Positions 10,645 through 52,230 of a DNA stretch of 52,230 nt are shown one piece after another. The notes under the pieces were generated by a model. It did no database searches. It worked only from the letters and a program-made list of their open reading frames with translations, and was not told where the DNA came from. Origin of the DNA: Catajapyx aquilonaris (Eukaryota); assembly GCA_000934665.2 (NCBI GenBank), contig KZ538712.1:1-52230 (forward strand). Direction: 5' to 3'. The stretch's first letter is position 1, and each line of letters begins with the position of its first letter. The position numbers and the translations under genes are program-made.

Positions 10645-11072
10645 AGCATAATTAACTAATGTTGCTAAAAAAATGCTCCAGTCTATCTGCAACCCAAGTG
10701 TATGGGAATTTAGCTGTGCTCACGGTCAGAAAATAGGAATTATTCACGCTCATTACACAGTCAGTTGTTGAAAATACATGTAGCATGTGAGTTTCAATGT
10801 GGAAGCACTGTGTGTGTGCAATTCCAAGAAATGTAAGACATAAATGGAAATGGAACACTCCACAAATGTACCCGGTAGCAGAAAAACAGGATTTTATAAT
10901 AACACCTTGAACTAACTTGGCGATCGTTGAGAAAGTAGTTTTTTCTTTTCTTTTTGATAACGAGAAATTGTAAGAATTTTGTAAGAAATATAACGCATAA
11001 AATTTGTAATACTGTATATACAGTTTTCATTTAATTGTTTCATATTCCAATATTAACTAGTGCTCTCTATAT

Positions 11073-12323
11073 TCTACTTCACCTTAATTAGGCCTCTAAT
11101 GTCAACACAATGCCACTAATGTGTCACTTTTTAGAAGCTGGCCCGCCGGAAGCTGGCAGCCACCCATCCCCAGTTCCTGGAAGGGTGCAGTCCAGCGAAG
11201 AAGGCCAAGTACGAATCCCTGCTCCAACAGGAATTGATGAGCTCCGAGGAGAGTACCGAGGAGGAAGGGGAAGAAGGAAGGCCGCCTAAAAAAATATTTC
11301 CGACGAAAAAAATTGATTGGAGCCATGAGAGGGCAGGGAGGATGCTCATGAAGCTGGACACCTTCCACTACAACCATTGCACGACAAAAAGAGGGAGGGC
11401 ACTTTTAATAGAAAGACGGACTGGGGAGGATGTATCAGTCCGGGCTGTCCCCAGGAATGTCGCCATGTGGACAATAAAAGAAGCTTGAAAAACATTAGGA
11501 TGATATATGACAATGTCACTTTCCCTTGATCCATATTCCTCATTGATCATTATTTTTTTAACAAAGCTCTAATATTATAAATTAAGTTTAGCAGTGTACA
11601 GTACATGCATTCTCACATCAAGTAGATTAATTTAGAATTTAAAAAACTACCAGTAAAGATCTGTGAATTTATTTCCGACTTCTCAGGAGGCCATTCCCCT
11701 GATCATCTCAAATTAAAATAGCTTATTGGTGGCTGACAACTATGTCTGGTCTTCTCTCAGCAGATCGCGGGTAATAAGTAACAAATCACCATTGATATTG
11801 AAAATAATTATGAAAAAGATTGGAACCATTTTAAAGCAATTTAAACGTGCCAAATAAAGACGCAAAAGGGGACATTTCATGTACCTATACATGGCCAACC
11901 TAAAGGAGTAACAGGATAGCTATCACGTACCTGTATGTGGTGGCAGTAAAGGCGTAAGAGGACACCTTTCATATGCCCCTACATGGTCCCATTAAAGGTG
12001 TAACAGGCCGCCTTTCACGTTACTATGCGTACCTAGACGGAACTGTACGCGGCTGGTAAAGGTGTGATAGGCCATACTTCATGTGCCTTGACTAAGTAAT
12101 ATAGCCATGGAAAGGTACCTTTCCGTGGGAAATGAAAGGTGTTATAGCAAGCCTGCATGTACCATAATGTACTCGAGAAAGGTACTTAAAGCTGATATAT
12201 CCAAATTGTAAAGTTGATGTAAACGTGCCTGTCCATGGCTATAATGTACCTCAAATACTGTATACCTATTACGTGCCTTTCTTGGGAAGGATAGGCTTAG
12301 AAAGGCATACATTTTTCCTAGTG
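11073..12323 (+). mobile_element. CACTA/EnSpm 3' end, copy 2, with terminal inverted repeat
   Basis: Ends ATTTTTCCTAGTG (reverse complement CACTAGGAAAAAT) at 12323; ORF 11234-11488; subterminal repeats. Confidence 0.8.
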
Positions 12324-18289: not shown

Positions 18290-18649
18290 TTTTCTGGCAG
18301 CATGAAACTTCAAGTTGGACATTGCAGCTGCAAAGCAGGGGTGAATGGACAGTGCAAGCATGCGGCAGCCCTTGTTATAGCTACAAACGACTCCACCAGC
18401 AGAAGCAAAACGTCAAATCCTCAAACCTGGGGTTTGCCAACCAAACGACAAATGTACAAGAAGGCAGCGACTTTGAAGTCCCCTTTTGGTGCGCCGAAGA
18501 TGGAAGTCGCAGTGTCAAAGAAGCTACGCCATGATGAGATTCTGCACTCATTTCCGGACATGTCTTGCGCCTTCATGAATGTGCTGCAACACAAGAAGAT
18601 AGACCCTGCAGAACATGACATACGGAACTTGATGGAGGAGATGATTTGA
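18290..18649 (+). pseudogene. SWIM zinc-finger TE protein fragment
   Basis: CSCKAGVNGQCKHAAAL (CxCx6CxH) then SKTSNPQTW. Confidence 0.7.
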
Positions 18650-18654
18650 TCCCA

Positions 18655-19835
18655 AGTCTGATAGTATTGAAGGATATGAGGATATTCCACACTTGGGCAG
18701 GACTGGCAAGATTGCCAATCATGCCCTTGTGTTCATGCTCCGTGGCCTTATGCGGAAGTGGAAGCAACCAGTTGCTTTCTACTTCAGCCGAGGTGGAGTG
18801 AGTTCCAAAACCATTGCAGAACTCCTGCTTCAGGCCTGTGACAAGGCTGGATTTAATGTTGTAGCCACAATATGTGACATGGGACCCACCAATGTCACAG
18901 CTCTGAAGTACTTGGGTTCCTCCTACCTGCACCCTTCCTTCTCCCTCAATGCCCGAGACATCATCACCCTCTTTGATCCTCCCCATCTGCTAAAATGCAC
19001 AAGAAATTTGTTTCTCAAGTATAACGTGAAGGGGGTGCAGGTGAAGACAGGCAGCATAGAATTTGAGGGGGTGGAAAAACTGGAGGTACGCCAACAGGAC
19101 ATGCAACAAGTAGGTTTCAGCTGCCTCTACAAACTCTCCGACGACCACCTTAATCCCAACAGCCCTTTCAAGATGAAGGTGAAGCCGGCAGCACAGCTGT
19201 TGAGTCACAGTGTTGCCTCCACGATGACATACGTTGCACACGGTAAGTGAGGACTGAAAGGCATGATATGTAATACGAATAAGTGCATCATATCGGTTAT
19301 CATGGTGTTGATTTTTCATATATGTTTCATTGCAGGCAAGATGAGCTATATGTCTGTTTAATTATTAGTGTATTGAGTGTACTTACATTTGACCCTATAA
19401 TTGTCGAAGCTCCAAAAGGGCCTTTGGTCCACTGGGATAATAAATAAATAAATCAATCAATCAAATCATTGCAGGCAAGATTGGAGCTGAAGCCATGGCT
19501 ACTGCACAATTCGCCAAATTTGTCGACAATCTGTTTGACTCTCTGAATGGCTACACGGAAGACCCAGACAGCGGCAAGGAGCTACGCTGCTGCATAACCA
19601 GTGACAGCCCTCACCTGGGCTTCTGGACTCTGGAGGGAAGCCATTCAACAAATAGACAGTTGGAAGTATGTGTCCCGAGATTCAGCCGAAAAGGTCACCA
19701 GACCACCCTCGCAGGATGGCTGGCTGGCTACGCTCAGGGGTATGCTGCTGCTTTGGGACGTGCTGCACAATGGCGATTTAAAGCTGAGGTATGTCGCACC
19801 CCGCTCCCTGAATCAAGACCCACTTGAGAATATGT
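18655..19835 (+). pseudogene. P-element/THAP9-like transposase fragment with intron
   Basis: ALVFMLRGL..KWKQPV, ICDMG, FDPPHLLKCTRN, KMKVKPAAQLLSHSVA, DNLFDSLN and LNQDPLENMF motifs. Confidence 0.92.
19343..19465 (+). mobile_element. 5'-truncated non-LTR retroelement tail
   Basis: (TAAA)n(TCAA)n tail; 16-bp TSD TCATTGCAGGCAAGAT at 19327-19342 and 19466-19481. Confidence 0.75.
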
Positions 19836-20132
19836 TCACTCCTCGCTTCGCAGAGTTCGCTCGCTCTACTGCTTGGACCACTTTCCCCGCTTTTTTCTAT
19901 GACGTAGATGCATGGCACAGAAGAGCATTAAACACTTTTTCGGTGGTTGTAGAAGTAATGCGCCTTCTGCCGCTTCTGGGCCTTCATCGAAGCTGGACAG
20001 AACAGCAGAACAGGACAGAACTTAAGCAAGAAACCTTAAGTACACTGGCACTGCTTGAGGGCCTTCTTCTGGATGCTCTTGGAGGGAAGGTACCAAATGA
20101 GGAAGGTATTAAAGAGGTACGGGGCCCATTTA

Positions 20133-20258
20133 GGGGCCGGTTTCACAGAGCTCAGTATATGATAAAACCAGGGTATTTCTCAAAATCCCTATCTATTTGT
20201 ATGGATTTTCCTAAAGAAACCTGGTTTTATCATATACCAAGCTCGGTGAAACCGGCCC
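20133..20258. mobile_element. PIF/Harbinger-type MITE
   Basis: TIR GGGCCGGTTTCAC(A/C)GAGCT, flanked by TTA on both sides. Confidence 0.7.
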
Positions 20259-20401
20259 TTACTGAGGACTTCGATATCGACAGTATACACAGCTTCAAAT
20301 ATTGAAGAACCAGCCTGGCGAAACTCCTCTTTCCTGCAGTGGTCTTGCTGAGAAGTTGAGTAAGGAGTCCGTCACAACTAAAGCCCTCGTTCAGCAAGTT
20401 A

Positions 20402-20602
20402 GTGATGTTGCTGTTGACCATGACTAGCCCAGCTTCAGTCGCATCCTCTGAGCGCTCTTTCAACGCACTTCGGCGACTTAAAACCTACCTGCGTTCAACT
20501 ATGACCCAAAAACGCGTGACACACGGCGTTCTCCTGCACGTTTCCAGAACTGCGGTGCGTCTCAAAAAGTTATGTCCAAACGCGTTGGGTAGAGAGGCAT
20601 GA
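20402..20602 (+). pseudogene. hAT C-terminal dimerization domain fragment
   Basis: PASVASSERSFNALRRLKTYLRSTMTQKR. Confidence 0.9.
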
Positions 20603-20619
20603 CGCAGTAATAGTCTTTC

Positions 20620-21295
20620 TTGAGCTGCTGACGAGTGTGGCCGACTCTTTAGAGGACATGAGTGGCTGGTCAGATAAGAGACACTGCATCCTCAGCCAAC
20701 CACTTGCTTTGTGCAATAAAGAAACCGGCATTTCTGGTTACAGTTCACGTTCTATCGAAAGTACTGGCCATCATTCTGCCACTTAGTAGGTTTCTACAAA
20801 CTGAAAACATCGATTGATGTGTAGCTCTAGAAATGACCGTGCAGGCGCATCAGACCGTCCAGCAGATGCGCGACCAAGGCAAGGAAGTGTTTGGGAGCAC
20901 CTTCACAGAAGCGGAACGGTGCAGCGAAGATCTCGGGGTTGTCCTGAGCATTCTACGGAGAGTAGCGCATCAAACTCAACGATGCAACATTTCCACAGCA
21001 TCTCCAGAAGAGTACTACCGCTTGTCGGTTTTCATTCCTTTTCTGGATACTGCCATAAGCGAAATCAACGAGAGATACATCCAGCACAAAGACACCCTTC
21101 AAAGCTTCACATGCCTACTGCCTCACGGCGCGAAAGTAATGCAGCCAACTGAAGCCCACAAAGAGCAGATGAGGCAGCTGCATCACATCTATGAAGACGT
21201 TCTAGGATGCGGGGAATCTGAAGCTCTGGGGAGCTGCATTTATGGTAGCGGAAGATTACGGCGATGGACAAGCCACCAAAAAATGCCATGGAAGC
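20620..21295 (+). pseudogene. hAT transposase central fragment
   Basis: QTQRCNI..SPEEYYRLSVFIPFLDTAISEINERY. Confidence 0.8.
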
Positions 21296-21319
21296 AGACA
21301 GCACGGAGCTGTAAAGGAT

Positions 21320-21580
21320 CCACTGTAAATCAACAAGACAGTTGCACGAAATGGCAATATGTATGTCACAGATCTGGAGTGTACCAGCGACAAAGGGACA
21401 GGGAAAGGTGCCTGAAATCACAGGGGTCATGTAAAATTGGAGCACAATGCCCTGCTGGCTTTGAAAGGGAGATGTTGAGCGATGGCACAATCCAAGTGAA
21501 ACATTGGAAAACACACCTGGGCCACAAAAGGAATCTGGAACATCTGAGATTGTCACAAAAGGACAGTCTGCAACTGGCAG
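21320..21580 (+). pseudogene. MULE/FAR1-like N-terminal zinc-finger fragment
   Basis: YVCHRSG...SCKIGAQCPA...THLGH. Confidence 0.6.
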
Positions 21581-22259
21581 GTGTGTGTACAGGGATGATA
21601 AATTCAGCTTGCAAGCTGAAGCAGAGGTGGAAACAATAGTGGAAACCGAAGTGGAAGCACTGGAGCAGAAAAGTCGTGGTTGCCTCTTTTCTGAAATCCC
21701 TCGCTCCCACCCTCTCACCTTTCCTCACCTGGCCTAGCGCTCGTTGTAGCTGCTACATAGGCATAGAGTCCCTCCCTCTTCAACTCCGCGCTTATTACCT
21801 GCGGGGTGAACCCTCTCCCCATCGCTCTACGCCTTGTGGCTGCGGGCTGTAACCCTGCCGACGCCCATGCCCTGCCCCCCAAACTCTCCCGCTCTTCGCC
21901 CCGAGGAGCAACAGCCGGGTGGAAAGAAGACCAAGTGGCCGGGGTGGTCGACAGACCACGGAGAAGTTGCTGCTGCAGGAGGCGGCACGAGAGGCAGCGA
22001 GGTGAATTCGTCCACCAGGTGGCTGTACTAGCCGCAATCCTGCGGGAAGCCCAAAGACGGTGGCAAGAGGAGTTGACCAGTCAAGCAGCAGCTAACCCCC
22101 CTGTCTCGAAGCCCTCGCTACCTCCCCCTCGTCCCTTCCTTCACCTAACCCTCCCCCCCACCCCCCCCCCCCCCCCNCCCCCCCTACCCCCCCCCCCCCT
22201 CGCAGGTCCCTCGTAGACATCGGCCCCTGACACCCCCCCCCCAAGTCCCACGTGACACA

Positions 22260-26059: not shown

Positions 26060-26765
26060 GACGGAGGCAGGTGTGGAAAAGGCGCTACGGGACTGGTGGT
26101 ACTCAACGCCAGAGGTGAGGACCTTCTACGAAAGGCTGATGAGGGACCAGAAGGTGTTTTACAAGATGGTAAGTGACCCCAATTGGAAATAGGGTGCCAT
26201 TTTTAAAGGAACTTGTTTTCACTAGATTCTTCTGATCTCAATGAGTCTTAATAGCCTTCAATACTGACAACGGACCTTTCCTGGGGGATAATACCAAGTA
26301 ATTAATATAAATGATGGATTCTACTTTCGTCTACTGATGTTTGATAGTACCATTGACTCCTGATATAAACAGCATCATATTTAACAGATGCGAGTGCAGA
26401 AACTAAGCTAACCCTCAGTTGACCATGGAAGCCGTTAGCAAGGAGCTACGGGAGTGGCGGGAGTCAATCCCAACGGTCCGGAGCTTCTAAGAAATGCTGA
26501 TGGAGAAGCAGAAGTTGTTTTACGAGATGGTACATGACCCCAATTGGAAATAGGGTGCCATTTTTAAAGGAACTTGTTTTCACTAGATTCTTCTGATCTC
26601 AATGAGTCTTAATAGCCTTCAATACTGACAACGGACCTTTCCTGGGGGATAATACCAAGTAATTAATATAAATGATGGATTCTACTTTCTTCTACTGATG
26701 TTTGATAGTACCATTGACTCCTGATATAAACAGCCTCATCTTTAACAGATGCGAGTGCAGAAACT
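26060..26765 (+). repeat. Tandem duplication, ~361-bp period
   Basis: 26175-26404 is almost identical to 26536-26765; the upstream coding parts are diverged. Confidence 0.9.
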
Positions 26766-26790
26766 GAACTATTTGCAAATATGTCTCTTT

Positions 26791-34362: not shown

Positions 34363-37300
34363 GAAGGGCTCGGGGAGAGAGAGCGGTATGCCACAAAAAA
34401 TTGGATGATGAGTTATTGCCATCTGGAGGTTAACAATGAAGGTGCCCGTGCATTAAGATGGTGTTTGTCACTCGTGATCACAGGTGGCAGGCGAGGCACC
34501 TCTAGCACTATATTTCCTAGCCCTAATTTCGTCTCACTTTTGATGTCAACATAGTGGTAAGCCACAAAAAAACAAGATGGCGGGGATGGCGGAATGCAGT
34601 AGGACAGGCACTGAGTCAGAAACAAATGTCTCTGACAGTGACAGTGACCGGCTTCCTTCTGATATCTCTGGTGTGGACGATTCAGAAGATGATCCTGATT
34701 ACGAGGTCAGCAACACCGACAGCGAGGATACATCTAGTGATGGGTCAAAGGTGAGACTTTGTTTTGTGTGGCATAACATTGTGTAGTCCTAAGTTTTTGT
34801 AGCTTCAACCGAGCATCGTGGTATGCCACAGTATGTCAGTTAATAACAAGCAGTAGGTGGCAAACAGTGTCTACAGCTTCTAACACTAAAGGCATTATCC
34901 ACATCGTCCTGAAAATACGTCATTTGCCTCTGTGAATCATGTCGTTTGCAATGGCCATTGGGTTGTGGCAAGATGTGGCATACCATTTTGTTGCTTGAAA
35001 ATCTCCTGCTCCACTATTTGACTACTGTCTTTGTAGGATACGGACCTGAATGCTACACGCGCTTCTCATTCAACACCTGTCAAGTCCCCCAGGAAAAGGT
35101 GGAGAAAGGTTCACCAAAGTCAGAAAGCGAAAAGGAAATGCAGGCGGAACTTGGTGTGTTCTAAACCTCCAGTTTAAGCATCATCCCCGTTCCGATATCA
35201 ATATTCTTGATTCTAAAATAATCATACCTTTTATCTTCTTCAAGGGTCAGGCATACCGAAGTGAGAAAACAGGAAAGCAGGTTCCAGAGCGAAGGCAAGG
35301 GGCTCATTGCAATTGCAGGAGAAAGTGCACCGAAAATGTCAAGGATGCATCTGATATATTCCACGCATTTTGGGATTTGGGCAATTTTGATTCGCAGAAT
35401 GCATACCTGTTTGGAATGATGAAGGTCAGTGCACCAAAGCGCACATATCCGACAAAACGGAAAAGTGAGACTTCGAGGAGGGGATGTTCTGTTACTTACT
35501 TTGTCAAGTCAAATGGCAGAGACACAGATGTCTGCAAAAAGGCTTTTCTCAGCATACATGGGTTGCAGGGATCCAGAGGGAGGGTTGAGAATATTGTGAA
35601 GATGATTAAATCCGGAGAGTCACTGCAAAAGGACATGAGGGGAAAGCATAGTAATCATCCAAACAAGTTCCCTGACAAAACTGTAGAAAGCGTCCACGAT
35701 CATATCCGCAGCATTCCTGTATACCAAAGTCACTATAGCCGCAAAAATAATCCAGAGAAAGTGTATTTTGATTGCGAGTTGACAATAACTGGGCTATACA
35801 GAGATCACTACTTGCGCTGGTGCCAAGAAAAAGGTGTGGAGCAACCTGCCTCACAAGACTACTACAGACGCACATTTTGCACCAAATACAACATCGGCTT
35901 TAAAACACCAAGATCAGATACATGCAGACAGTGTGACAGATTGAATATTGTCATTGAAAATCCCGAAAACGAGGAACAAAAACGGGACGCTCTGACACAG
36001 AAGGCGGATCACCAAAGGCTAGCAGAAGTATTGCAAGATTCCCTGAGAACCGAATCGGAACGTGCTGTAAAGAATCCCGATTCGGTTGCACTGATTTGCT
36101 TTGATTTGCAGCAAGCATTGCCAACTCCAAAACTAACTGCAAGCCCTGCATTTTACAAGCGGAAGTTGTGGACTTATAATGTAGGAATACATGATTGTGT
36201 AACTGATTCTGCTGAGATGTACATGTGGTCCGAGGATGTTGCTAAGCGAGGAAGTGAAGAAATTGGTAGTGTTCTATTGAAGTACCTTGAAAAAGATTTG
36301 CCGGAGAACTTGATAGCATATTCCGATAACTGCGCCGGCCAAAACAAGAATTGGACAATCATTTCCATGTGGCAAGACCTAGTGTAAAGTGGAAAATTCA
36401 AAACGATCGAGCACAGGTTTTTCTTGCCAGGGCACACCAGAATGCCATGTGATAGAGACTTTGGTGCAATAGAAAGGTATCAGCGACATCACGTTTCTCA
36501 AGTGTTTGATCCGGAACAGTGGATGGACATTGTCAGGCGATGTAGGAGAAACAAACCATTTCAGGTGATGGAAATGAAACAAGCTCATTTTGTGCAAGTA
36601 AGTTTACTGGCTCAACAAATCAAGAGAGCCACTGTGTGTGCAGATGGATCACTACGCAATTTTTCTTCAGTGGTGTGTTTCCGCTTTGATGCTAGCAGCC
36701 CTAATTCCATGTTTGTTAAGCATCATTGGAGTGAGGACTTCAGAGAAGTGAAAATTGGACGAAGGGGCCGAACATCTCATTCTGCTGCTACCTTGCCAAC
36801 AAAGTACCAAGAATGTGTGCTAATCAACCCTCTGAAGTTGACAGATGTCAAATTTTTGCTGCAATTTGTACCTCCAATCAATCATGCGTACTACCTTTCC
36901 TTGCGCAGCAGTACGCAGGATGATGACTCCTTGGTTAATAATGTTGAAGTGATATAACATTATCACTTCAACATGATTAACCAAGGCATATGGTACTGCA
37001 GTAACGAAATGAAAACTTTGATAAGTACTGCAGTAATCTTATTGCATTGAAAAAACTGCCCTGCTCTCCTCTGTGTACTGACCATTATTAATGTATTAAT
37101 GTATTTCCTCTATGGTCCTGACCCATACACTCTTGCCTCCTGGCGGGACGCGGGCGTGGGAATAAAAGGCAGTCTGGTGAAAGCTAGCCATGAGTGCACA
37201 CGTTCATTTACTTGCTTCCTTCCCTTTCGTGCCTGACCTGATCCGTGACTACCCAGGACCACACATACGACAAAAACCATTTTTTTATTTCCGAATATTG

Positions 37301-42112: not shown

Positions 42113-42728
42113 TGTCACCGGTAGAACCTGTCTCCAAAATATAGCGGCACTAATGATACTTTATGAGAGGACAAGCTCCCCCTTTTTAGCCATTTGGCAG
42201 AGAAGTAAGTAAACAAAACAATTTAACCTGGCGCCAAGAAGGCGGGAGAACCATATTTGGTCCTCAGGAGGAGTTTGACTCGCGTAAGCTGATAGCACCC
42301 AGTGTCAGTTCCGCCTCCACAAGGTTGGAGTCCGCTATATAAAGGCTCCACCCAACCTACTCGGGGTTCGTTCCTGAGGGAGTCATCCAGACGGAAGGAG
42401 GGTCCTGAGGTGTCACAAGCCTCCTCTTATTCGCCCAGCCCGGGGCGGCCATCGCAGGAAGAGGGAGGAGCAGACCCCCTGTGTGGAAGACCGGCCTTCT
42501 GTACCGGCTTACCAGCAGAGATGACCCGGCCTGTTGTCAATAAGGTTAGAACTTAACTGGGGTAGCTTAAATGATCATGCTAGAAGGGCTGATTCCGATG
42601 ACCATGTTAGAAGTGAATAAACCATGAAAAAGACCCAGCTGTCCACTTATTCCAAGGTGTAACCCGGGAGACCCAAAAGAACTATACAAGAGGTCGGAGG
42701 TCAATGACCCCTGACCTTACTTGTGACA
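42113..42728 (+). mobile_element. LTR family A, copy 1 (616 bp)
   Basis: TGTCAC...GTGACA termini; TATATAAA ~42336; AATAAA ~42616; about 4 substitutions by eye versus 48615-49230. Confidence 0.95.
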
Positions 42729-43020
42729 ACTGTCGCGTACGTATTGATCTCGAAATATACGGGAAACATTAGTGTGTCTGACGGTTTTCAACGTAAGGAT
42801 TTTGGAAGGAAGAGGGTCCTGATAATTATGCCCTTGGGAACTATAGCAATGTCCAAAAACCAAAGTGTGCCCCTAAAGTGAGAATTCTTATTATGTTGAC
42901 TAACCCCTGTCCAGAAATACCCGCCTTTACTGAGGATGGCGTTGCTATATAGGGAGGGTGGATGCCCCTCTCGTGTCACTCTTAGTGAGACCTTGGCCAC
43001 CTACACCTCTAACTAGTACC

Positions 43021-43476
43021 ATGGATTGATGTGCCACACCCTCTCGCGCTTCGGCCGGAGAGGAAGATGCCGCTTCCAGCGGTTGGGACACCCCTTCATT
43101 GGGGCGACCTGAACTCAGCCCCCCAGCAGCGGTGTCCAGCGGCGCCACCAGCTCCTTCGAGCCCTGGAGCGATCGTCGTGAGGATGGAGCACGGGGAGAC
43201 AGTGCCGTGGACTTTTCCTCCACCGGGCCATCCCCGCCGATGGCGCAGAGGATTTCGGCGGCCGAGGGTTTTGAACACATCCGACGGGCCCCGATGACGA
43301 ACTACGGCCCAGCTCCACCCCTGCGAATCTACGGTATGTCGCAAGTACACGTGGTATACGGTCCCAACACATGCGTCACTATCCATATCCGAGTGGCCGA
43401 AGACCAAGTGGTTGTGATCTTACCGGAAGGCTGGCGCCAAGAGGTGCAGGCTATGCAACCTCATAGGTTCTGGTAG
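43021..43476 (+). pseudogene. Retroelement accessory ORF, copy 1 (family B; TGA at codon 3)
   Basis: ATG GAT TGA is in frame with ORF 43099-43476; C-terminal domain homologous to the ORFs at 48113 and 51353. Confidence 0.75.
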
Positions 43477-43682
43477 TAACTGCCACAAGAAAGTTAGTGT
43501 AGTGTAGTGGACAATAGGAAGTGATGTGCTCACCAGTGATGTCTCTAGGACTGTACCTTTTATTTTGTCCGTGAATATATCCGTTGTTTCTCACAAGGGC
43601 ATATGTGTGTATGTGTACGGAATCATACTGACCGTATGATATTGAAGCCGGATTGCCCAGCTTCAATTTAAGGGGGAGCGTT

Positions 43683-44313
43683 TGTCGCCCTTCAGACGCG
43701 CGCTACACATAAACGGAAACATTAGCGGGGATTGATTGTTGACAACCACTTAGGTCTTAGCAAATAGCCATTAGGCTCCATCGAAGTCACGACGCGGCCC
43801 TGTGGTGTAAAAGTAGAGTAAACAATACGCGAGAGGCCGACGTCAGCTTAGGCGCGTGACCATATTTGGTCCATCAGGAAGTATGATTCCGGTAAACCGA
43901 TAGCTCCCATTAGCAACTCTGACACATTGAGGCCAGCCGGCCTAATATAAGCAGTAAGAGCCGCGGCGACCAGAGCAGATCCCAAGGGAGGAGCACCCAA
44001 GCAGAAGCCCCTTCTGGCCACCACTCCTCAGCTGGAGCAGATCCCGAGGGAGGTGACCACCCCGTCTACGCCCAAGACAGCCATCGGCACGGGACACCTG
44101 GACCGCCATGTCGGCTCTCACCCCCACTGCTACACAGGTCAGAGCTGCTAATGAGGTAGCGTAATTTGTGACCCTCTAACCTGTCGTTGTGCGAAGGAAA
44201 TAAACCTTGAAAATGACCCTACCTGTCTTTGACTTCCTTGGGTAACCCGAGAGACGCCAAAAGAACCTAACTTGAGGCCGGGGTCGTGGTGACCCCTTGA
44301 CCTCAGGTTGACA
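43683..44313 (+). mobile_element. 3' LTR of related family B (~631 bp)
   Basis: Follows PPT AAGGGGGAG; TGTC...GACA termini; shares CCATATTTGGTCC and AATAAACC..GTAACCCG.GAGAC.CCAAAAGAAC blocks with LTR A. Confidence 0.85.
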
Positions 44314-45281
44314 CGCAGACCAAAAGGCAGAAACTGTGGCCCGGACAATTATCAATGGAGTTTTCTCTAGACATGGTATACCCCGGAAAATGCTAAGTGA
44401 CCGAGGTACCAACTTCCTGTCTAAACTAATGAAATCTATTTGCGCCATGTTATCCGGAAGGAGACGGGTTAACCGAACGCGCTAACCAGACTTTAATATC
44501 CTTGCTATCCCATTATGTAGCAGAAAACCAACTAGACTGGGATGATTATCTGGACTTGGCCTTGTTGGCTTATAGATCGGCAGTGCATGCCTCTACCAAT
44601 GAGACGCCCTTCTTCATGCTCTATGGGCGGGAAATAGAAGTTCCCATTGATGAGTTTATGACCCCCCGACGCCTTAATTGGTCGGTATTGTCCGACTATA
44701 AGGAGGAGTTAGCCTTGCGTATGCAAAGGATATTCTCAGGCGCCAGAGAAAGTTTGGAAAATGCTGGGCGAAAATATAAACGGGCGTATGACAAAAAGGC
44801 CCGTCAACGTGTCTTCAAGGTGGGAGACAAAGTGCTCCTTTTCACGCCCCAGGTTAAGATAAAGGGGATTAAAAGGAAGCTGGCAAAACTTTGGTCTGGG
44901 CCTTATCGCATTGAGCGCCAGACTAGCCCAGTAAACTTTGTTATACATGAAGTGATGGGTCGCCGTCGTCAACACGTGCATGTTAATAGATTAAAGCAAT
45001 TTTATTCCCGAGATGTATTCCCTCCACAAAGGGACGTCCCCTCCCCTGAGGGAGACACACTTCCTCCCGAGGAGGAAGGGCTCGGGGAAGATGTTGAGGA
45101 AAACTGTTTTGACCCTAATGAGACCATTACGTTTGGCCCATTAAGACCGAGAGATGAGGGTAGAGAAGAAGTGAATGGGTCCCCTGAGAGAGACGCCACT
45201 CCTCCCGAATCCCCCATAGATGTATTTCCATTGCGACGAAGCGATCGGGTGCGACAGGCACCTTCTCGCTACAGTCCTTAA
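44314..45281 (+). pseudogene. pol: Gypsy/errantivirus integrase (pol 3' end), 5'-truncated, with a short frameshifting deletion near 44450
   Basis: RHGIPRKMLSDRGTNF, GDGLTERANQTL, AYRSAVHASTNETPFFMLYGR and KLAKLWSGPY motifs. Confidence 0.92.
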
Positions 45282-45292
45282 GGAAAACTAAG

Positions 45293-45313
45293 TACTAATA
45301 GTTGTCCTTTCAG
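45293..45313 (+). promoter_or_regulatory. Probable env splice acceptor
   Basis: Branch point TACTAAT, pyrimidine tract and CAG|G just before ATG 45320. Confidence 0.65.
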
Positions 45314-45319
45314 GTTACC

Positions 45320-47383
45320 ATGATACGAGTGTTTGTGACCTTGCTGATGTGCCAGATGAGTAGCAGCTTCGGACTGGAAGCACCAGATGGAGTGAGCCCA
45401 CCGGAAAACCTTCCCCCAGGACTTTTATTTATAAAAAAGAAAGAGCTAGCTATTTCAGGAAACACTTGGAAAATAGTGGTCAATTATAATTTAGCGGAAT
45501 TGCACCGGGAGCTGAAAGCTATAGCTGGGGAGTTGTCGGCGTTTCGTCATTATGTGACAACAGCACATGATTCTTGTGCTTCTAATTTTAAGGAAACCAT
45601 GGCTTTACATGGCTCCCCTTTGAGGGAGGCGGATATAATTTATGAACAAGTATTTTGCAATACCACCACAATAGAATTAAATTATTTGCAGCAAGAAATG
45701 GGCGTATTACTGAACGAAGTAGGAGTGCTTAATGGCTTAATTGTGGAAACTCAAGGTAACCGGAAGAGACGGGGCTTGATTAATTTGGCCGGTAATGTTT
45801 TAAAATTTCTCTTCGGAGTGAGTGTTGAGCAAGATGTAATTGATCTACAAGAGCAATTGCAACAGGCCTCAAGAAAGACCTCCAAATTGGCCCATTTGGC
45901 CCAATTGCAGACAACCGTGCTCAATAAATTGCATCAAAAAGTTGAGAGTAATGCGAAAAGTATTTCTGACTTATCGGACACTATCAATTCATTAAATCAA
46001 CAATTGGTTAAGTATACGGATATGATTGAGCACCGGTTGTTAAATACCGAATTATATGATACGGCCCTGATGATCATAAATGCAGGAGCCCGGCTGTTAC
46101 ATGCTTCCTTGGCTCAAGCACGGCACGCTGTAATTGAGTTAATACAGGTGTTTCAGCAGCTAAATGTTGGCCGTTTGCACCCCTCGTTAATATCTCCCAG
46201 AACGTTGCTGGGCACACTGCATTATGTGTCGATTATTCTGTCTCCCGACTTACACTTTCTAACCCCCTTGAGTGCCAAGAATGTGCTCACATTGTACAAA
46301 TGGTGTCATACTTACCTATTACCCTCCCAAGACACCATTTCCATAATAATCGTAATGCCCTTATTGTCAGATGGAAGTACCTTTGATTTGTACAAAGTTA
46401 TTCCGTGGCCCTCCTATGTTAATGAAAATGCTTCAGCCATTATAATCCCCGAACAACCATATTTGGCGGTTTCGAAGGACCAACAAGCCTTTATGGAACT
46501 GGAAGAAGCAGACATTACTAATTGCCAAGCCCAGGACGAATTGACCTTATGTGATTTTGAAAGACCTATTTACACGAGGCCCAGTTCCTCGTGTACTTAT
46601 GCCATATTGACTGGGTTCACGATGGAAACGGACCAGCGCAATAGAGTCCTAATTCAACATATTTTACCTCGATTTGAGTTACTGAATTCAGAAGGATTGT
46701 GGGCTTATAATGTGCCTAAGCATTTGCTGTTAAAAATTCAGTGTCGTAATTCGAAAAATGAAACCCTTTTGGACTTAGTGAATACGGGAGTGTTCTCATT
46801 GCTCCCAGGTTGTAGGGCCATTCACACTGATTTCCGATTAGAAGGTAACTTGCATGGTAGTTCTGGTAAGGAATTACACCTGAATGGACATATAGTGGTC
46901 CCAGCGGTCACCTCTATGTTTAGCGGAGTAGAGTTGCAAGTGTTGAATAAGGTGATGCACACCAATATGTTGTTGGAGGAAACTAAGAATAATTTGTGGT
47001 TCACGAGAATCAATCGAGTAGAAAAAGGAATTCCTATGGATGATATCATGTTACGCATGAACGAGGCTAGCACCGATGTATTAAATCAGAGTCATGACTA
47101 TGTAAATAAGGGAGAATTGTGGTTACAACCGACCTCCTATATATCTTTGTTGTTGCTGGTCGGAACTGTGTTAGTAATTGCTATTGTTTATGCATTACGG
47201 AAGAAAATTAATTATTGTGATTTCTTTTGTAATGGCCTGGCCGGAGAGCCAGAACCTGCTGTGACATATGTATCCACTTGTAAACAGGAAATGGAAGAGA
47301 TTGTATTGTCTAGTCTTCCGGATGGTATTGTCCCCTCACAGGTGGGTGGTACACATGAAGGTGGGAGTAGGCCTGCTCCATAA
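45320..47383 (+). CDS. env: Errantivirus-type envelope glycoprotein (baculovirus F-like class I fusion protein), intact ORF
   Basis: Signal peptide; furin site RKRR (45761-45772) followed by fusion peptide GLINLAGNVLKFLFG; heptad repeat; Cys-rich region; C-terminal TM helix. Confidence 0.93.
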   Translation: MIRVFVTLLMCQMSSSFGLEAPDGVSPPENLPPGLLFIKKKELAISGNTWKIVVNYNLAELHRELKAIAGELSAFRHYVTTAHDSCASNFKETMALHGSPLREADIIYEQVFCNTTTIELNYLQQEMGVLLNEVGVLNGLIVETQGNRKRRGLINLAGNVLKFLFGVSVEQDVIDLQEQLQQASRKTSKLAHLAQLQTTVLNKLHQKVESNAKSISDLSDTINSLNQQLVKYTDMIEHRLLNTELYDTALMIINAGARLLHASLAQARHAVIELIQVFQQLNVGRLHPSLISPRTLLGTLHYVSIILSPDLHFLTPLSAKNVLTLYKWCHTYLLPSQDTISIIIVMPLLSDGSTFDLYKVIPWPSYVNENASAIIIPEQPYLAVSKDQQAFMELEEADITNCQAQDELTLCDFERPIYTRPSSSCTYAILTGFTMETDQRNRVLIQHILPRFELLNSEGLWAYNVPKHLLLKIQCRNSKNETLLDLVNTGVFSLLPGCRAIHTDFRLEGNLHGSSGKELHLNGHIVVPAVTSMFSGVELQVLNKVMHTNMLLEETKNNLWFTRINRVEKGIPMDDIMLRMNEASTDVLNQSHDYVNKGELWLQPTSYISLLLLVGTVLVIAIVYALRKKINYCDFFCNGLAGEPEPAVTYVSTCKQEMEEIVLSSLPDGIVPSQVGGTHEGGSRPAP

Positions 47384-47923
47384 CCCTCATGATGTTCCCC
47401 CTACTGAATTCAAGTAATAGTGACTAATAGACAGTCTCTTACGTTTTCTTACCCGGGATGTTAGCAATTGTTTCATGTTGTTGGTAAACTCTTGTGTGGA
47501 AGTGCTGAGAATAATTACCTGTGTTGAGACCTTAATTTTGTGTTATAAAAAATAAACCTGTTCGTAGGGAGTATGGATACTCCGTCTTAGACGCCGTAAC
47601 TCCACTCACAGGAGAATAACCATAAGAAGAAGTAGGCATAACAATTACGTTGGTGGATCCCCCCTGTCTGACCCAAAATAACCCAAGCTGTGCTTCAACA
47701 AAACTGTGATCTACATGCCCCTCCAGGGATCAGTAGAGTCAACTGGAAGTGGCAGTAGGACCATGAGACTTCCCTAAGTGTTGAGTGAAAAGTGGAAGAT
47801 GTTATTGTTGTCAAGATTGCCTGTACCTTATATAAGAAGCCTTCTTTCCCCTTTGCCCTATCACACCCGTCTGAACCCTTGAAGAAGCAGCTTCCAGAGT
47901 CAGTTCTTGCCGTCACTACCGCT

Positions 47924-48424
47924 ATGGACTTGTCTACCACTTCCTGCGAAGGGTGGGAATACTCCCCCGCCTCTCCAGAAGACCCTGAACAACGCGGTGA
48001 GATGGCAGAGGGTTGGCAAACCCCAACTCGGGAGGAGATGGCCGCTCGCTTGGAGGCCGACCTTCGGTTCAACCTGCCCCCGGCCCCGTCGGCTCGCCGA
48101 GTGTCCCCATAGATGCGGACCTCCACACCCGAACGCCGCCAAGGGACTCCGGAGATGTGGACTGCTACCCCTGAACACCGGCAGACCCGGCCACCACCTC
48201 GCTGGTCACCGGTCCAGTGGGAACATCATCAACCATGGCAAGGGACCGTCCAGACCCGGATCTCCACCCCGCCAATCGTCATCCATGGGACGGCCAGGGT
48301 TCATGTGGTGCGATGTCCCCAGGAAGACATCTCTATCAACATCCACCGAGCCTCTGACCAAGTGGTCATCGTGTTGCCGGAGGATTGGAGGCAAGATGTG
48401 CAAGTAGTGTCCCTACCTGTGTAA
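47924..48424 (+). CDS. Retroelement accessory ORF, copy 2 (family A; one in-frame TAG at 48110-48112)
   Basis: MDLSTTSCEGW start; ORFs 47792-48112 and 48113-48424 are contiguous and in frame; conserved C-terminal domain. Confidence 0.75.
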
Positions 48425-48551
48425 AACCCCCCTTTCACGTTGAGTAGGAAGGTGTAGTTGAAGAGTATGGTCCAGTTAATCGGAATCAGTCATGATGTGA
48501 GTAGAAAATGGGTTCGTCCCAGTCGTTGTAAGCTACGTGAGTCATATTGCC

Positions 48552-48614
48552 TGTCACACTGTCCGTATGACATTAAAGCCGGGTTGCACCCAGCTTTAAT
48601 TCAAGGGGAAGCGC
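48552..48614 (+). promoter_or_regulatory. Double hairpin plus polypurine tract
   Basis: Conserved at 43622-43680 and 52172-52230; PPT AAGGGGAAG directly before the LTR. Confidence 0.8.
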
Positions 48615-49230
48615 TGTCACCGGTAGAACTTGTCTCCAAAATATAGCGACACTAATGATACTTTATGAGAGGAAAAGCTCCCCCTTTTTAGCCATTTGGC
48701 AGAGAAGTAAGTAAACAAAACAATTTAACCTGGCGCCAAGAAGGCGGGAGAACCATATTTGGTCCTCAGGAGGAGTTTGACTCGCGTAAGCTGATAGCAC
48801 CCAGTGTCAGTTCCGCCTCCACAAGGTTGGAGTCCGCTATATAAAGGCTCCACCCAACCTACTCGGGGTTCGTTCCTGAGGGAGTCATCCAGACGGAAGG
48901 AGGGTCCTGAGGTGTCACAAGCCTCCTCTTATTCGCCCAGCCCGGGGCGGCCATCGCAGGAAGAGGGAGGAGCAGACCCCCTGTGTGGAAGACCGGCCTT
49001 CTGTACCGGCTTACCAGCAGAGATGACCCGGCCTGTTGTCAATAAGGTTAGAACTTAACTGGGGTAGCTTAAATGATCATGCTAGAAGGGCTGATTCCGA
49101 TGACCATGTTAGAAGTGAATAAACCATGAAAAAGACCGAGCTGTCCACTTATTCCAAGGTGTAACCCGGGAGACCCAAAAGAACTATACAAGAGGTCGGA
49201 GGTCAATGACCCCTGACCTTACTTGTGACA
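48615..49230 (+). mobile_element. LTR family A, copy 2 (3' LTR)
   Basis: Direct repeat of 42113-42728, preceded by the PPT. Confidence 0.95.
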
Positions 49231-49611
49231 ACTATCGATCGCGCCCCCCGAGCAAAAACAAGAACAGTGTGTTAATTGGTGGCCTAGCATGGGCAGGCAC
49301 CTCTTGGGCCAGTGCCTCACATGTCTGGGCTGGGGACAGGCTAGTTGTGAAGAGGTGTCGAGGCAGTCCTGTCGGAATGGGAGCACAAACAGAGCCGCAA
49401 ACGTGCCTCAAACGCACATTCTCCCTATGTCAGCCATTGCACAGCGCTCAGATTTCGGCCCTCATAGAACAGTGCGCTTCTGGCGGCCAGACCTTACGTC
49501 ACACTCACACCCCGCTAGAGGGAAAACGGCCGCAGTTTTGCCACCTTACCCTGTTTATGCATCTTGCAGTGTGTTAACGTAGGCTACCTATATACAGTAG
49601 ATTGACTGGCG

Positions 49612-49890
49612 ACACTGGCCAAATATTGGCATAACGGATGAGTCAATATATAGGTCCAATGTCGCCAGCAGATATTGGACCGACATGAAGCAGTGCACAT
49701 TTTGCCTCGCCAATCCCAATATCGGTACAATATTGGGTGACGATATTAGGCCGATATTGTCACCCAATATTGGGCCAACTGAGGCAAAAGGTTAACACTT
49801 TTAGGTTGGTCCAATATCGTCACCCAATATTGTACCGATATTGGCTCAGCCGTTCTACCTATATTGGGCCGATATGTCTGTGCTACCTGG
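49612..49890. mobile_element. MITE end with repeated CCAATAT/ATATTGG palindromic units
   Basis: Many AATATTGG and CCGATAT units; ends TGTGCTACCTGGG. Confidence 0.6.
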
Positions 49891-49935
49891 GTTGCTGGTT
49901 ATATCGCTTTCCGAGCAAGAAAAGTAGATCAAACT

Positions 49936-51069
49936 TCTGTCCTATTACCGGCTGATATGCACTTCTTAACTCCTTTGACGGAAAGAAATATATTAACACT
50001 GTACAAGTGGTGTCATACTTATATAGGGCCTTCCCAAGAATCGATGATAATAATAATTACAGTGCCTTTGCAACGAGAAGGCAACGCTTTTGACTTGTAT
50101 AAAGTGGTCCCCTGGCCTTTCTTGGTACAGGACAAATTGTCGGCTGTTGTACGAAACATAAAGCCTTTTCTAGCGGTCTCTCGAGACCAGCAAGCGTTTA
50201 TTGAATTGGAGGAAACTGATATGTTAGATTGCAAGTCAGATAATGACTTTACTGTATGTCATTTCCAAAAACCAGAGTGGACAAGACCAAGCACTTCTTG
50301 TGCCTATTCTGTTTTGACAGGATTCGGCCTGACCAGTCAATCATGTCAAAAAACTATTTCCGTACATACGACTCCTCTATTTGAATTAATAGACGCTGAA
50401 AAGGGTTCATGGGCTTACAACACACCTAACACATTGCAGCTAAACATACAATGTCGATTCTCCGGAAATAGCACACATTTAACTATTACAGGCATAGGTA
50501 CTTTTGTTTTGCCTAAAGGCTGTACAGCATACCACACAGGTTTTCGTATTAAAAGTACCGTACATGGAGGTGTACGAGGGAATTTGTTAATGGGAGGACA
50601 TATCGTAATACCTCCAATAGGATCCTTGTGGGAAGGAGAGGAAATGAGAGTTTTGAGAAATTTATGGAAAGTGAATTCACCTAATAATAGTTTACACATG
50701 AGTAAAGTATATGAGTTGCTAAATGAAAAGGAAGGCATGTCTTTGGAAAACTTAATAAGAGATTTGAATGAAGCAAACGACATGTTAATGTTTGATCCGG
50801 ATCTTGAGAATGATACAAACCTTTGGGTGCACCCTAGTAGTTATGTGTCCATGTTTATATTTTTTGGGATTTTGGCTCTGGTGGGAGTTGTTTATTTTAT
50901 GGTAAGAAGACACAGAAATATAAAAGAATGTAATATGGATCCTAGTTACCACAGAGAGCCATCTGTCTCGTATGTAACCACGCAGGAGCAGACAAGAGAG
51001 GAGATTGTGGTGTCTGCTATTCCTGGTAATGGGGGAAGCTTCCAGACTGTGAACCCAGGTGAAAATTAA
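49936..51069 (+). pseudogene. env: 5'-truncated env of a third related family (C)
   Basis: HFLTPL..LTLYKWCHTY..FDLYKVVPWP..LAVSRDQQAFIELEE aligns with the 45320 env; TM helix present. Confidence 0.92.
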
Positions 51070-51484
51070 GGTGACAGGCCTGCACCAATGTTTTCAGTTC
51101 GGTCTCCACAGACTGAGAGTTGTCATGGTTATCGAGATTGTAAGTGGGTAATTAGTGCCAATGTATGGCAAGTAAACAGGGCTTTTGGATTGTTTCAAAG
51201 GGGAAGGAGAGCTGTACACAAGCAAACCATTTTGGGGGAAAGTCAATTAGTTTGCCCAAGGGGCTAGTGCCATTTGACATTGACCTATGAACATGGAGAT
51301 TCACTCACTCCATATTGGGCAATGTTGTTGAAACGTAGTAACGCTGACTAGGATGTTCACACCCAATATTGGAAGTGAACGAAGTCATAAAAGGACCCTC
51401 CTTGTTCCGAAAAGGAGTCAGTTGCACCCAAGTCGTCAGAGACAACAGCACTTAGTGTACCTCCGGACACCTTACAACAGAAGG

Positions 51485-51874
51485 ATGGATATGTCTTCAA
51501 CCTCTAGTGGGTGGTCATTTGTGGCCCCAAACCCGCCAAAGAACGAGAGGCCCGGCGCCGCAAACCAAGCATCCTCATCGCGCGCTTCGGCGGTGCTGAG
51601 TGATATGAGCGAGGACCGACTTTCTATCGGCCCCTTGCCTCCTGCTGCCCATCGCTTTACACCGGTCGATTGGGAAGAAGTTAGAAGAGAAGGTGAGCGT
51701 AATCTTCGGAATGCTCCACCGCCCCTGGGGGTCAAAGGCCTGCGGAGAGTGGACGTTATCCGAAGATACTGTCCCATTGTGACGCTGACTGTCATCGGTG
51801 GAGCCGAGCAGATGGTGGTCACGATGCCCAGGGATTGGGATCAAGAACTTCAAGTAGTCCCCAGCGACTATTAA
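51485..51874 (+). CDS. Retroelement accessory ORF, copy 3 (family C; uninterrupted, 129 aa)
   Basis: MDMSSTSSGW start; conserved C-terminal domain; CATAAAAG and TCAGTT upstream. Confidence 0.78.
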   Translation: MDMSSTSSGWSFVAPNPPKNERPGAANQASSSRASAVLSDMSEDRLSIGPLPPAAHRFTPVDWEEVRREGERNLRNAPPPLGVKGLRRVDVIRRYCPIVTLTVIGGAEQMVVTMPRDWDQELQVVPSDY

Positions 51875-52230
51875 GTCACCCGGACCCAAAGTGCAATAGT
51901 GTCCCGTATAGTGGAATAGTTTATATAGAAGTGCAAAAGCGAGCACCTAGTAAAGGTGCAAAGAAAGTGGTTCTGTTCGACACATCATTGTGCAACTTTC
52001 CCACCACCCCATTAGTAACACGTGCAATTGTGCAGCTCGCCCTTAAAACAGTGTTTTCCTTTTTTTTTGCCGTCTACAGACGTTTTATTGTATCATAAGC
52101 CCCTGTAACTATTGCTTAAAAGATTGCCCAAACTTGTTTATTGCCATGTTGTAGTACTTCCCATTGCGTGGATCATACTGGCCGTATGAACTTGAACCCG
52201 TTAGCACCGGCTTCAAGTAAAGGGGGGGGG

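Follow-up and report, generated by a model that had tools for sequence, protein, structure and literature searches.

Errantivirus-like elements, the env-carrying members of the Ty3/gypsy group, are treated as simple retroviruses composed of gag, pol and env. A 2012 review of Drosophila errantiviruses describes accessory-gene 'upgrades' as 'not shown for the errantiviruses' (PMC3383448), and a 2026 metazoan survey presents three open reading frames (ORFs) only, the terms 'accessory', 'ORF4' and 'downstream of env' being absent from it (PMC13524379). Likewise, no fourth or accessory ORF in env-carrying gypsy elements is described in the open-access literature that we searched, a term search of PMC12992720 included. 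Here, we analyze three homologous small ORFs in 52,230 nucleotides (nt) of Catajapyx aquilonaris DNA (contig KZ538712.1, positions 1 to 52,230; this whole stretch is referred to below as the window), all of which occupy the same position relative to the 3' end of such elements and two of which come after an env gene of the Baculo_F family. From the comparisons presented below, we estimate at about 65% the probability that these ORFs represent a real, selected post-env accessory (fourth) protein-coding gene.

Small additional genes are known in other Ty3/gypsy elements. Members of the Drosophila MDG1 group (412, Mdg1, Stalker2 and Blood) carry sORF1 and sORF2, which encode proteins of about 70-110 amino acids (aa), are conserved with a low ratio of nonsynonymous to synonymous substitution rates (dN/dS) and are unrelated to gag, pol and env, the sORF1 product being a non-membrane protein that resides in a subnuclear compartment and is presumed to function at an early stage of the life cycle (PMC11952523). 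Judged from this description, the ORFs in the window are similar in being small, extra and unrelated to gag, pol and env, but the MDG1 sORFs lie upstream of gag in elements devoid of env, whereas the ORFs in the window come after env. The products also differ, since sORF1 is predicted to be a helix-turn-helix protein and sORF2 to have a single transmembrane helix with a polybasic stretch, whereas the post-env protein is predicted to combine a disordered Trp-rich half with a β-rich domain, displays strands only in its structural models and has no hydrophobic run of membrane length.

The Cer1 element of Caenorhabditis elegans, also of the Ty3/gypsy group, encodes at its 3' end CERV, an accessory factor for the export of genomic RNA (gRNA) that is produced from a spliced mRNA (PMC10309623). 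As with the post-env ORF, CERV is lineage restricted, has no homology outside and is found at the 3' end of the element. However, CERV is a 517-aa protein encoded by five exons that share gag sequence, and it takes the position of env in an element devoid of a fusion glycoprotein, while the post-env ORF encodes 129-166 aa and is present besides a Baculo_F env. In bdelloid rotifers, long terminal repeat (LTR) retrotransposons display extra ORF3 types downstream of pol (PMC5408684), which are comparable in being additional ORFs in retrovirus-like Ty3/gypsy elements, one lineage of which possesses a paramyxovirus-F-like env. These ORF3s occupy the env position and encode GDSL esterases, DEDDy exonucleases or membrane proteins, in contrast to the post-env ORF, which is found in addition to env and has no recognizable domain. 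As for location, the closest counterparts are the genes that complex retroviruses carry between env and the 3' LTR, that is, nef, tas/bel and tax/rex (GyDB, PMC2238898). They too are positioned after env and before the polypurine tract (PPT) and 3' LTR, are small, non-structural and non-enzymatic, and are presumed, like the post-env ORF, to have their own subgenomic mRNA. They belong, however, to vertebrate Retroviridae and not to Ty3/gypsy (Metaviridae-like) elements with a baculovirus-F-type env, and no sequence or fold relation was detected.

An accessory small ORF in a Ty3/gypsy element is therefore a known concept, documented by MDG1 sORF1/sORF2 and by Cer1 CERV, which limits the novelty that a preliminary description of this DNA had claimed. 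In the open-access literature, a Baculo_F env combined with an additional conserved gene at the 3' end appears to be undescribed, and so does the protein family itself. A conserved fourth gene would turn at least one lineage of errantivirus-like elements into a 'complex' invertebrate retrovirus and would add a new protein family that lacks homologues and is probably directed against a host factor. Should its product be a regulator of RNA export or transcription, retroviral complexity would still have arisen here independently, in addition to the cases of CERV and the MDG1 sORFs.

Three post-env reading frames and their conservation

The three ORFs, which we refer to as copies 1, 2 and 3, belong to element families B, A and C, respectively, and are listed with the surrounding features in Table 1. 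Their positions and their homology are as the preliminary description had it, with E values of 1e-9 to 1e-12 in tblastn searches within the window, but only copy 3 is open throughout. Copies 1 and 2 share 50% identity over 48 aa (E 1e-11 and 4e-12), copies 1 and 3 share 30% over 130 aa (E 6e-11 and 2e-11), and copies 2 and 3 share 35% over 72 aa (E 3e-9 and 1e-9). No fourth copy was found within the 52 kb and, since the next best tblastn match has an E value of at least 0.3, the number of copies in the window is exactly three. The start codons all display a purine at -3 and a G at +4, the context being ACC-ATG-G in copy 1, G at -3 and G at +4 in copy 2, and A at -3 and G at +4 in copy 3. The encoded proteins, about 130-165 aa long, have in common an MD..S..GW motif at the N terminus, a middle portion rich in Pro, Ser, Ala and Arg, a PP..R(F/W/I)(S/T)P..WE motif and a C-terminal block of 45 codons. 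The architecture initially proposed, in which the N-terminal motif is followed by a Pro/Ser/Thr-rich middle and a C-terminal domain of about 55 aa, is present in the copies, the middle being rich in Pro, Ser, Thr and Ala and the C-terminal block measuring about 45-55 aa.

Each ORF is located 129-297 nt upstream of two conserved stem-loops and a PPT, as had been noted, while two further statements about their surroundings had to be revised. The two ORFs that were thought to follow env directly are separated from it by spacers of 540 nt (47384-47923, between the env of element A and copy 2) and 415 nt (51070-51484, between the env of element C and copy 3). Moreover, copy 1 has not simply lost its upstream region but is part of a 1.37-kb 3' fragment of a family B element that is nested in element A. 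Synteny with env, proposed as a check, is thus seen for two of the three copies, copy 1 residing in a 3' fragment without env, and all three precede the stem-loops and PPT.

Comparison of the three post-env regions with one another reveals conservation that is specific to the ORF frame. In tblastx, this frame scores highest in each of the three pairs (62.9, 55.6 and 46.9 bits). For copies 1 and 3 and for copies 2 and 3, no other frame is significant, the ORF frame reaching 55.6 and 46.9 bits and anything else in the ORF at most 26.7 and 23.5 bits. In blastn, the same regions match only in the stem-loop/PPT segment (74-83% identity) and in a single 47-nt stretch of the ORF. Between env and the ORF, the spacers lack any significant similarity, the best nearby tblastx row having an E value of 0.012 (19.9 bits), and conservation is consequently confined to the ORF and the stem-loop/PPT segment. 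Within the C-terminal block, which can be compared over 45 codons without gaps, identities at codon positions 1, 2 and 3 are 0.60/0.78/0.42, 0.49/0.67/0.29 and 0.42/0.71/0.36 in the three pairs, that is, the second position is the most and the third the least conserved in every case. When the nucleotide differences of each pair were kept in number but placed at random (5000 nulls), the observed identical amino acids exceeded the null means in all pairs: 24 versus 14.4 (0/5000 nulls, P < 0.0002), 16 versus 9.0 (P 0.001) and 14 versus 9.4 (P 0.028). Finally, copies 1, 2 and 3 contain 1, 1 and 0 in-frame stops, versus means of 4.4-4.9 after shuffling (P 0.056, 0.047 and 0.005). These five independent checks (tblastx, blastn, codon positions, random placement and stops) point the same way, towards a coding function, and the claim that the ORFs are conserved as protein despite DNA divergence is supported by the order of the codon positions, by the excess of identical amino acids and by the near silence of blastn. 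The dN/dS ratio in the C-terminal block, another check that had been suggested, is 0.25 and 0.52 by the NG86 method for the two computable pairs, which is only a weak number since dS is saturated.

A number of observations weigh against a selected gene. In the closest pair, copies 1 and 2, other frames score as well in tblastx (40.5 and 39.1 bits), which is expected because their DNA is still 60% identical. The saturation of dS is such that NG86 fails for copies 1 and 3, while maximum-likelihood dS values of 9-19 are meaningless. The P values for openness are only about 0.05 for copies 1 and 2, another frame of copy 2 likewise has a single stop, and the ORF regions are 57-62% GC, so that long open frames are not rare. 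There are just three copies, all in one window and two of them broken, and the window holds no full-length element with gag and pol, no gag, protease or reverse transcriptase of these elements being found in it, as these parts are either deleted or located beyond its ends. Foldseek searches of the PDB and BFVD with a model of the C-terminal domain produced no match at E <= 0.001, the models being of low confidence. When the intact copy was searched against about 5.8 billion word-indexed proteins, none of the 11 candidates reached E <= 0.01 and, with no homologue in the libraries searched, conservation is seen within this genome only. The claim of a selected fourth gene is hence upheld by frame-specific protein conservation and weakened by the two broken copies and by the saturated dS.

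One alternative is that the ORF is non-functional, being either a cis-acting nucleic-acid element of the 3' region or the decaying relic of a captured sequence, with an open frame that is a by-product of high GC. The stops in two of the three copies, the paucity of stops in several frames at this GC content, the lack of a known homologue and the poor structural models would all fit. We nevertheless consider it unlikely, since the ORF is kept mainly as protein, with 29-42% identity at third positions against 67-78% at second positions. A cis-acting element would be conserved at the DNA level like the stem-loops, and the ORF is not. In addition, the stops in copies 1 and 2 are to be expected because the elements that host them are dead, element A being internally deleted and family B being represented by a fragment. 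The explanation that we favor, taken as a whole at somewhat better than even odds, is that a lineage of F-type-env Ty3/gypsy (errantivirus-like) endogenous retroviruses would carry the gene between env and the 3' stem-loops/PPT and would have kept it while the three families diverged, env A and env C being about 41% identical.

Relatives, composition and predicted structure of the protein

We searched for relatives of the protein in a variety of sequence and structure collections, which are mostly prokaryotic and viral, so that missing matches say little about its distribution in animals. Pfam gave nothing at E <= 0.01 and, at E <= 10, a single row at chance level (Tmemb_55A, E 0.053) that is far below the cut-off. 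A sequence profile search of the PDB returned no match at E <= 10, and recognition in the ESM Atlas was low, with no named family above 0.9. Together with the Foldseek result, these searches agree with the initial view that the domain is unrecognized, and no match to an already described accessory protein was found in Pfam, the PDB or the protein libraries searched. A profile built from the three copies, as had been recommended, was run on protein libraries and on metagenome and viral contigs without finding a true relative. Among 1.84 billion representatives, it gave three matches (E 1e-8, 1e-5 and 6e-4), all to long repeat proteins over 5-8 stretches, which we judged spurious. None of the 98 pattern matches in JGI metagenome contigs and none of the 29 in IMG/VR viral contigs was confirmed as a homologue of the ORF.

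Searches for related elements by way of env or the stem-loops were similarly unproductive. In the protein collection, env has only two relatives, with 33% and 26% identity. A scan with an env profile gave no confirmed locus among 24 in metagenomes and one among 77 in IMG/VR, and the latter (locus L001) displays a weak env-like stretch only, with no LTR and no homologue of the ORF. The stem-loop DNA pattern had no match in viral contigs. The ORF itself showed no relation to env in a profile-profile comparison (probability 0.03).

The most unusual compositional feature of the protein is its tryptophan, which accounts for 4 of 151 residues in copy 1, 7 of 166 in copy 2 and 3 of 129 in copy 3. Most Trp residues belong to the low-complexity half, where their neighbors are Gly, Ser, Asp, Glu or Gln, in contexts that include SSGWD, EGWE, EGWQ, SSGWS, VDWEE, VQWEH and (E/R)(D/G)W(R/D)Q. 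All three copies exhibit a GW near the N terminus, at residues 21-22 in copy 1, at residues 10-11 and again 30-31 in copy 2, and at residues 9-10 in copy 3. Visual inspection of the three translations revealed no long hydrophobic run that would correspond to a signal peptide or a membrane segment.

As for structure, AlphaFold2 modeled the whole protein with a predicted local distance difference test (pLDDT) score of 49.8, with β-strands only in the C-terminal part and no helix, while a model of the C-terminal domain on its own (pLDDT 64.3) displays three strands and, again, no helix. The N-terminal half is probably disordered, as judged from its composition and low pLDDT. The C-terminal domain is predicted, with low confidence, to span about 50 aa and to form three to five β-strands. 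The all-β fold initially surmised thus receives weak support from the location of the strands, and the suggested combination of AlphaFold and Foldseek yielded these low-confidence strands with no structural match at the threshold given above.

Candidate expression signals, stem-loops and possible functions

The window offers candidate signals for expression of the ORFs, all of which were read by eye. Upstream of env A (45286-45319), a branch-point-like TACTAAT is followed by a pyrimidine tract and a CAG whose AG (45312-45313) lies 6 nt before the ATG, and the leader of element A (42790-42798) contains a donor-like site, AAC/GTAAGG, at 42793. This acceptor and this donor suggest that env is probably produced from a spliced subgenomic mRNA, as it is in known errantiviruses, and they make spliced subgenomic expression plausible for the lineage. 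The accessory ATGs are preceded by pyrimidine-rich sequence and an AG 4, 20 and 4 nt upstream (43015-43016, 47902-47903 and 51479-51480). TATA-like octamers are found as well, 75 nt upstream of the ATG in copy 1 (TATATAGG, 42946-42953), 95 nt upstream in copy 2 and 99 nt upstream in copy 3 (CATAAAAG, 51386-51393), with no ATG between this motif and the start of the ORF in copies 2 and 3. These upstream features may act as acceptors or as internal promoters, both routes being compatible with the sequence. The protein would then be translated from its own subgenomic mRNA, most likely through splicing of the leader donor to the pyrimidine-tract/AG acceptor 4-22 nt before the ATG, as appears to be the case for env, or alternatively by way of an internal TATA promoter located 75-99 nt upstream. 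Such promoters have been documented for the env gene of Tor elements, which are env-carrying and Ty3/gypsy-like (PMC4402516).

The two stem-loops that precede the PPT consist of sequences common to the three families, TCATAC-loop-GTATGA and then TTGAAGCCGG-loop-CC.GCTTCAA. Three of the 17 predicted pairs display compensatory changes, and the core motif ACTGNCCGTATGA occurs exactly three times in the window, versus 0.17 expected. Their probable role is that of a cis-acting element involved in reverse transcription, packaging or the export of RNA.

What might the protein do? Errantivirus-like elements are policed mainly by small-RNA pathways, and both GW182-type proteins and several viral suppressors bind Argonautes through Trp motifs such as those described above. 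We envisage a soluble adaptor whose Trp motifs would bind a host factor, while its β domain would provide specificity or self-association. The most likely mechanism would be antagonism of host small-RNA silencing through binding of Argonaute/PIWI proteins in the manner of an 'Ago hook,' a speculative lead to which we assign a low probability. There is precedent for the motifs in SPMMV P1, a viral silencing suppressor with GW/WG motifs (PMC2904775), and in HIV-1 Nef, a retroviral 3' accessory protein that binds Ago2 and has GW motifs (PMC3762824). The likeness to Ago-hook suppressors such as SPMMV P1 lies in Trp residues that have Gly, Ser, Asp or Glu as neighbors and belong to a region that is probably disordered; it is a likeness by motif only, with no homology and few motifs. 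Two points count against the hook: the evidence for it consists of short Trp motifs, one to three GW per copy, and these motifs would also be compatible with an acidic activation domain or with other ligands of Trp pockets. That the ORF is the first accessory gene of an env-carrying Ty3/gypsy (errantivirus-like) element and that its product is an Argonaute/PIWI hook that, through Trp motifs in a disordered arm, blunts host defense by PIWI-interacting RNAs (piRNAs) or small interfering RNAs (siRNAs) is, as a joint proposition, a long shot. If it were true, the elements would encode an animal transposon-borne suppressor of small-RNA silencing, placed where nef sits in lentiviruses and, since small-RNA pathways police them, this would make transposon fight-back against piRNA/siRNA directly testable. 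We tentatively rank a Trp-motif adaptor for a host factor, with Argonaute/PIWI as the lead, above an RNA-export regulator and the latter above a transactivator.

An RNA-export regulator would be a post-transcriptional factor akin to Rev or CERV that, translated from spliced mRNA, binds structured unspliced gRNA, for example the two stem-loops, and promotes its nuclear export or translation. The elements appear to splice, as judged from the env acceptor and the leader donor, and unspliced RNA would need an export route. The stem-loops, with their compensatory pairs, lie downstream of every copy, and Ty3/gypsy elements offer a precedent in Cer1, whose CERV is required for gRNA export (PMC10309623). 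We consider this function improbable, however, since visual inspection of the three translations revealed no arginine-rich RNA-binding motif, leucine-rich export signal or classical nuclear localization signal, and Pfam, profile and PDB searches revealed no sequence relation to anything known. Furthermore, the stem-loops are directly adjacent to the PPT, and their role may lie in reverse transcription instead.

Acidic activation motifs typically present Trp or Phe in acidic contexts, and the GWD, DWEE, GFEH and DWDQE stretches of the post-env protein resemble them. The protein might thus be a transcriptional transactivator, comparable to Tas or Tax, with the acidic and polar Trp motifs serving for activation and the β domain making contact with the LTR or with a DNA-binding factor of the host. 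The TATA-like motifs upstream of each ATG would be consistent with a regulatory gene driven by its own internal promoter, such as complex retroviruses possess, and internal promoters exist in Tor elements (PMC4402516). We view this as more doubtful still, since Pfam detects no DNA-binding domain, the TATA-like motif of copy 3 (CATAAAAG) is weak, that of copy 1 falls right at the junction with element A, and these are candidate signals read by eye. Just as improbable is the notion that the ORF is the last exon of a longer spliced protein, fused to a gag- or env-derived N-terminal exon, and that its ATG and limits were misread: acceptor-like sites 4-22 nt upstream of each ATG, the copy 3 frame, which stays open for 153 nt farther upstream (from 51332), and the N-terminal exons that CERV shares with GAG (PMC10309623) would be in line with it, but the MD start and strong initiation context are kept in all three copies, similarity begins at the ATG, and the copy 2 frame is closed 41 nt upstream of it.

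Anatomy of the elements and other features of the window

Element A is delimited by a direct repeat of 623 nt with 99.2% identity in blastn and TG...CA ends. The LTR proper probably ends at 42728, because the sequences of other copies differ from the point equivalent to 49230 onward. From 5' to 3', the element consists of the leader, copy 1, stem-loops, PPT, the family B LTR, an integrase remnant, env A, a spacer, copy 2, stem-loops, PPT and the 3' LTR. Besides its integrase domain, the pol remnant displays a match to SH3_Tf2-1 that is below its cut-off in Pfam, and env A starts 39 nt after the pol stop. Both env genes belong to the Baculo_F family and are of the errantivirus type, and the 5'-truncated env C aligns to residues 304-687 of env A with 41% identity. 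No target-site duplication of element A is evident by eye.

Table 1. Coordinates of the ORFs and of the features of elements A, B and C in the window
Feature	Position	Strand	Details
5' LTR, element A	42113..42735	+	TGTCACC...TGTGACA; blastn match to 3' LTR
Copy 1 (family B fragment)	43021..43476	+	151 codons, in-frame TGA at codon 3 (MD, TGA, 148 further codons)
Conserved C-terminal domain, copy 1	43315..43455	+	Homologous to the blocks in copies 2 and 3
Two stem-loops and PPT after copy 1	43622..43678	+	Stem-loops 43622-43667; PPT AAGGGGGAG 43670-43678
Family B LTR	43683..44313	+	631 nt; TGTCGCC...GGTTGACA; by eye against the A LTR; after copy 1 PPT, abuts A integrase remnant
Element A pol remnant	44314..45281	+	Integrase C-terminal part; Pfam Integrase_p58_C, E 3e-8
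env of element A	45320..47383	+	687 aa; Pfam Baculo_F, E 6.7e-40
Copy 2 upstream region	47829..47923	+	TATA-like TATATAAG 47829-47836, long pyrimidine tract, several AGs, last 47902-47903 (by eye)
Copy 2 (family A)	47924..48424	+	166 codons, in-frame TAG at codon 63 (48110-48112)
Conserved C-terminal domain, copy 2	48269-48409	+	Homologous to the blocks in copies 1 and 3
Two stem-loops and PPT after copy 2	48553..48611	+	Stem-loops 48553-48600; PPT AAGGGGAAG 48603-48611
3' LTR, element A	48615..49237	+	blastn match to 5' LTR
env of element C	49936..51069	+	5'-truncated; Pfam Baculo_F, E 5e-17
Copy 3 (family C)	51485..51874	+	129 aa and stop; sole intact copy
Conserved C-terminal domain, copy 3	51719-51859	+	Homologous to the blocks in copies 1 and 2
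Two stem-loops and PPT start after copy 3	52172..52230	+	Stem-loops 52172-52217; window ends here

The 1.37-kb fragment of family B, which is related to but distinct from family A, comprises copy 1 with its stem-loops, PPT and LTR and is flanked in element A by the leader on one side and the integrase remnant on the other (42736-44452 region). In the simplest history of this nested arrangement, a B element would have inserted into the A integrase, and one later deletion would have removed gag and most of pol from A together with everything upstream of the ORF in B. We compared the window, by letters and depth, with public contigs carrying the same organism label, which come from four runs, three of them marked 'DNA?' and one of a kind not stated. 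Contigs across 42942-43648 and 51518-52198 contain at most two other letters, those across the junction at 44245-44670 contain 0 or 2, and all have a low depth (13.8-31.9), which supports a unique, post-insertion arrangement. Contigs over the A integrase, env and ORF region are 4-8% different and have a depth of 67-110. Family A is tentatively multi-copy, contig-run depth not being a copy number. Other family A copies in the contigs have 31 extra nt at 44452 and, in the ORF, a length variant of 39 nt at 48095-48133 (a 'goes back' joint in the contigs) that spans the position of the copy 2 stop. This variant is codon aligned, so that the frame of the ORF is kept. The idea that the 39 nt represent a 13-aa repeat unit was not borne out, since adjacent 39-nt units match at only 13-14 of 39 positions, and Tandem Repeats Finder found no tandem repeat in copy 2.

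Several details of the elements were noted in passing. By eye, the sequence after the 5' LTR (42729-42748) does not display the TGG start expected of a primer-binding site for the 3' end of a tRNA, and the 7 nt after both A LTRs are alike at six of seven positions (42729-42748 and 49231-49245). An AATAAA is located at 47551-47556, in the spacer between env and the ORF of element A and about 170 nt past the env stop, in a context that resembles that of AATAAACC in the LTR (by eye). Between the A 3' LTR and the truncated env C, a high-depth repeat (49238-49935) contains a 37-nt inverted repeat (49716-49752 and 49808-49844) and many CCAATATTGG-like palindromes. Its CACCCAATATTG motif is found again at 51345-51371, in the spacer between env and the ORF of element C (51311-51371 region). 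This repeat may be an insertion resembling a miniature inverted-repeat transposable element or a regulatory module.

Elsewhere in the window, the ORFs at 18645-21639 match two Pfam domains, the TNP-like RNase H N-terminal domain (E 6e-19) and the TNP-like GTP-binding insertion domain (E 4e-11), and look like the remnant of a P-element/THAP9-like transposase. Two consecutive open frames of 445 and 189 aa at 35050-36957, the first with a weak match to DUF7869 (E 0.0024, below the cut-off), are possibly another transposase-like gene. Finally, the regions 9519-12121 and 26079-26771 contain a tandem duplication of about 1.55 kb with 78% identity and a 361-nt tandem repeat with 88-92% identity.

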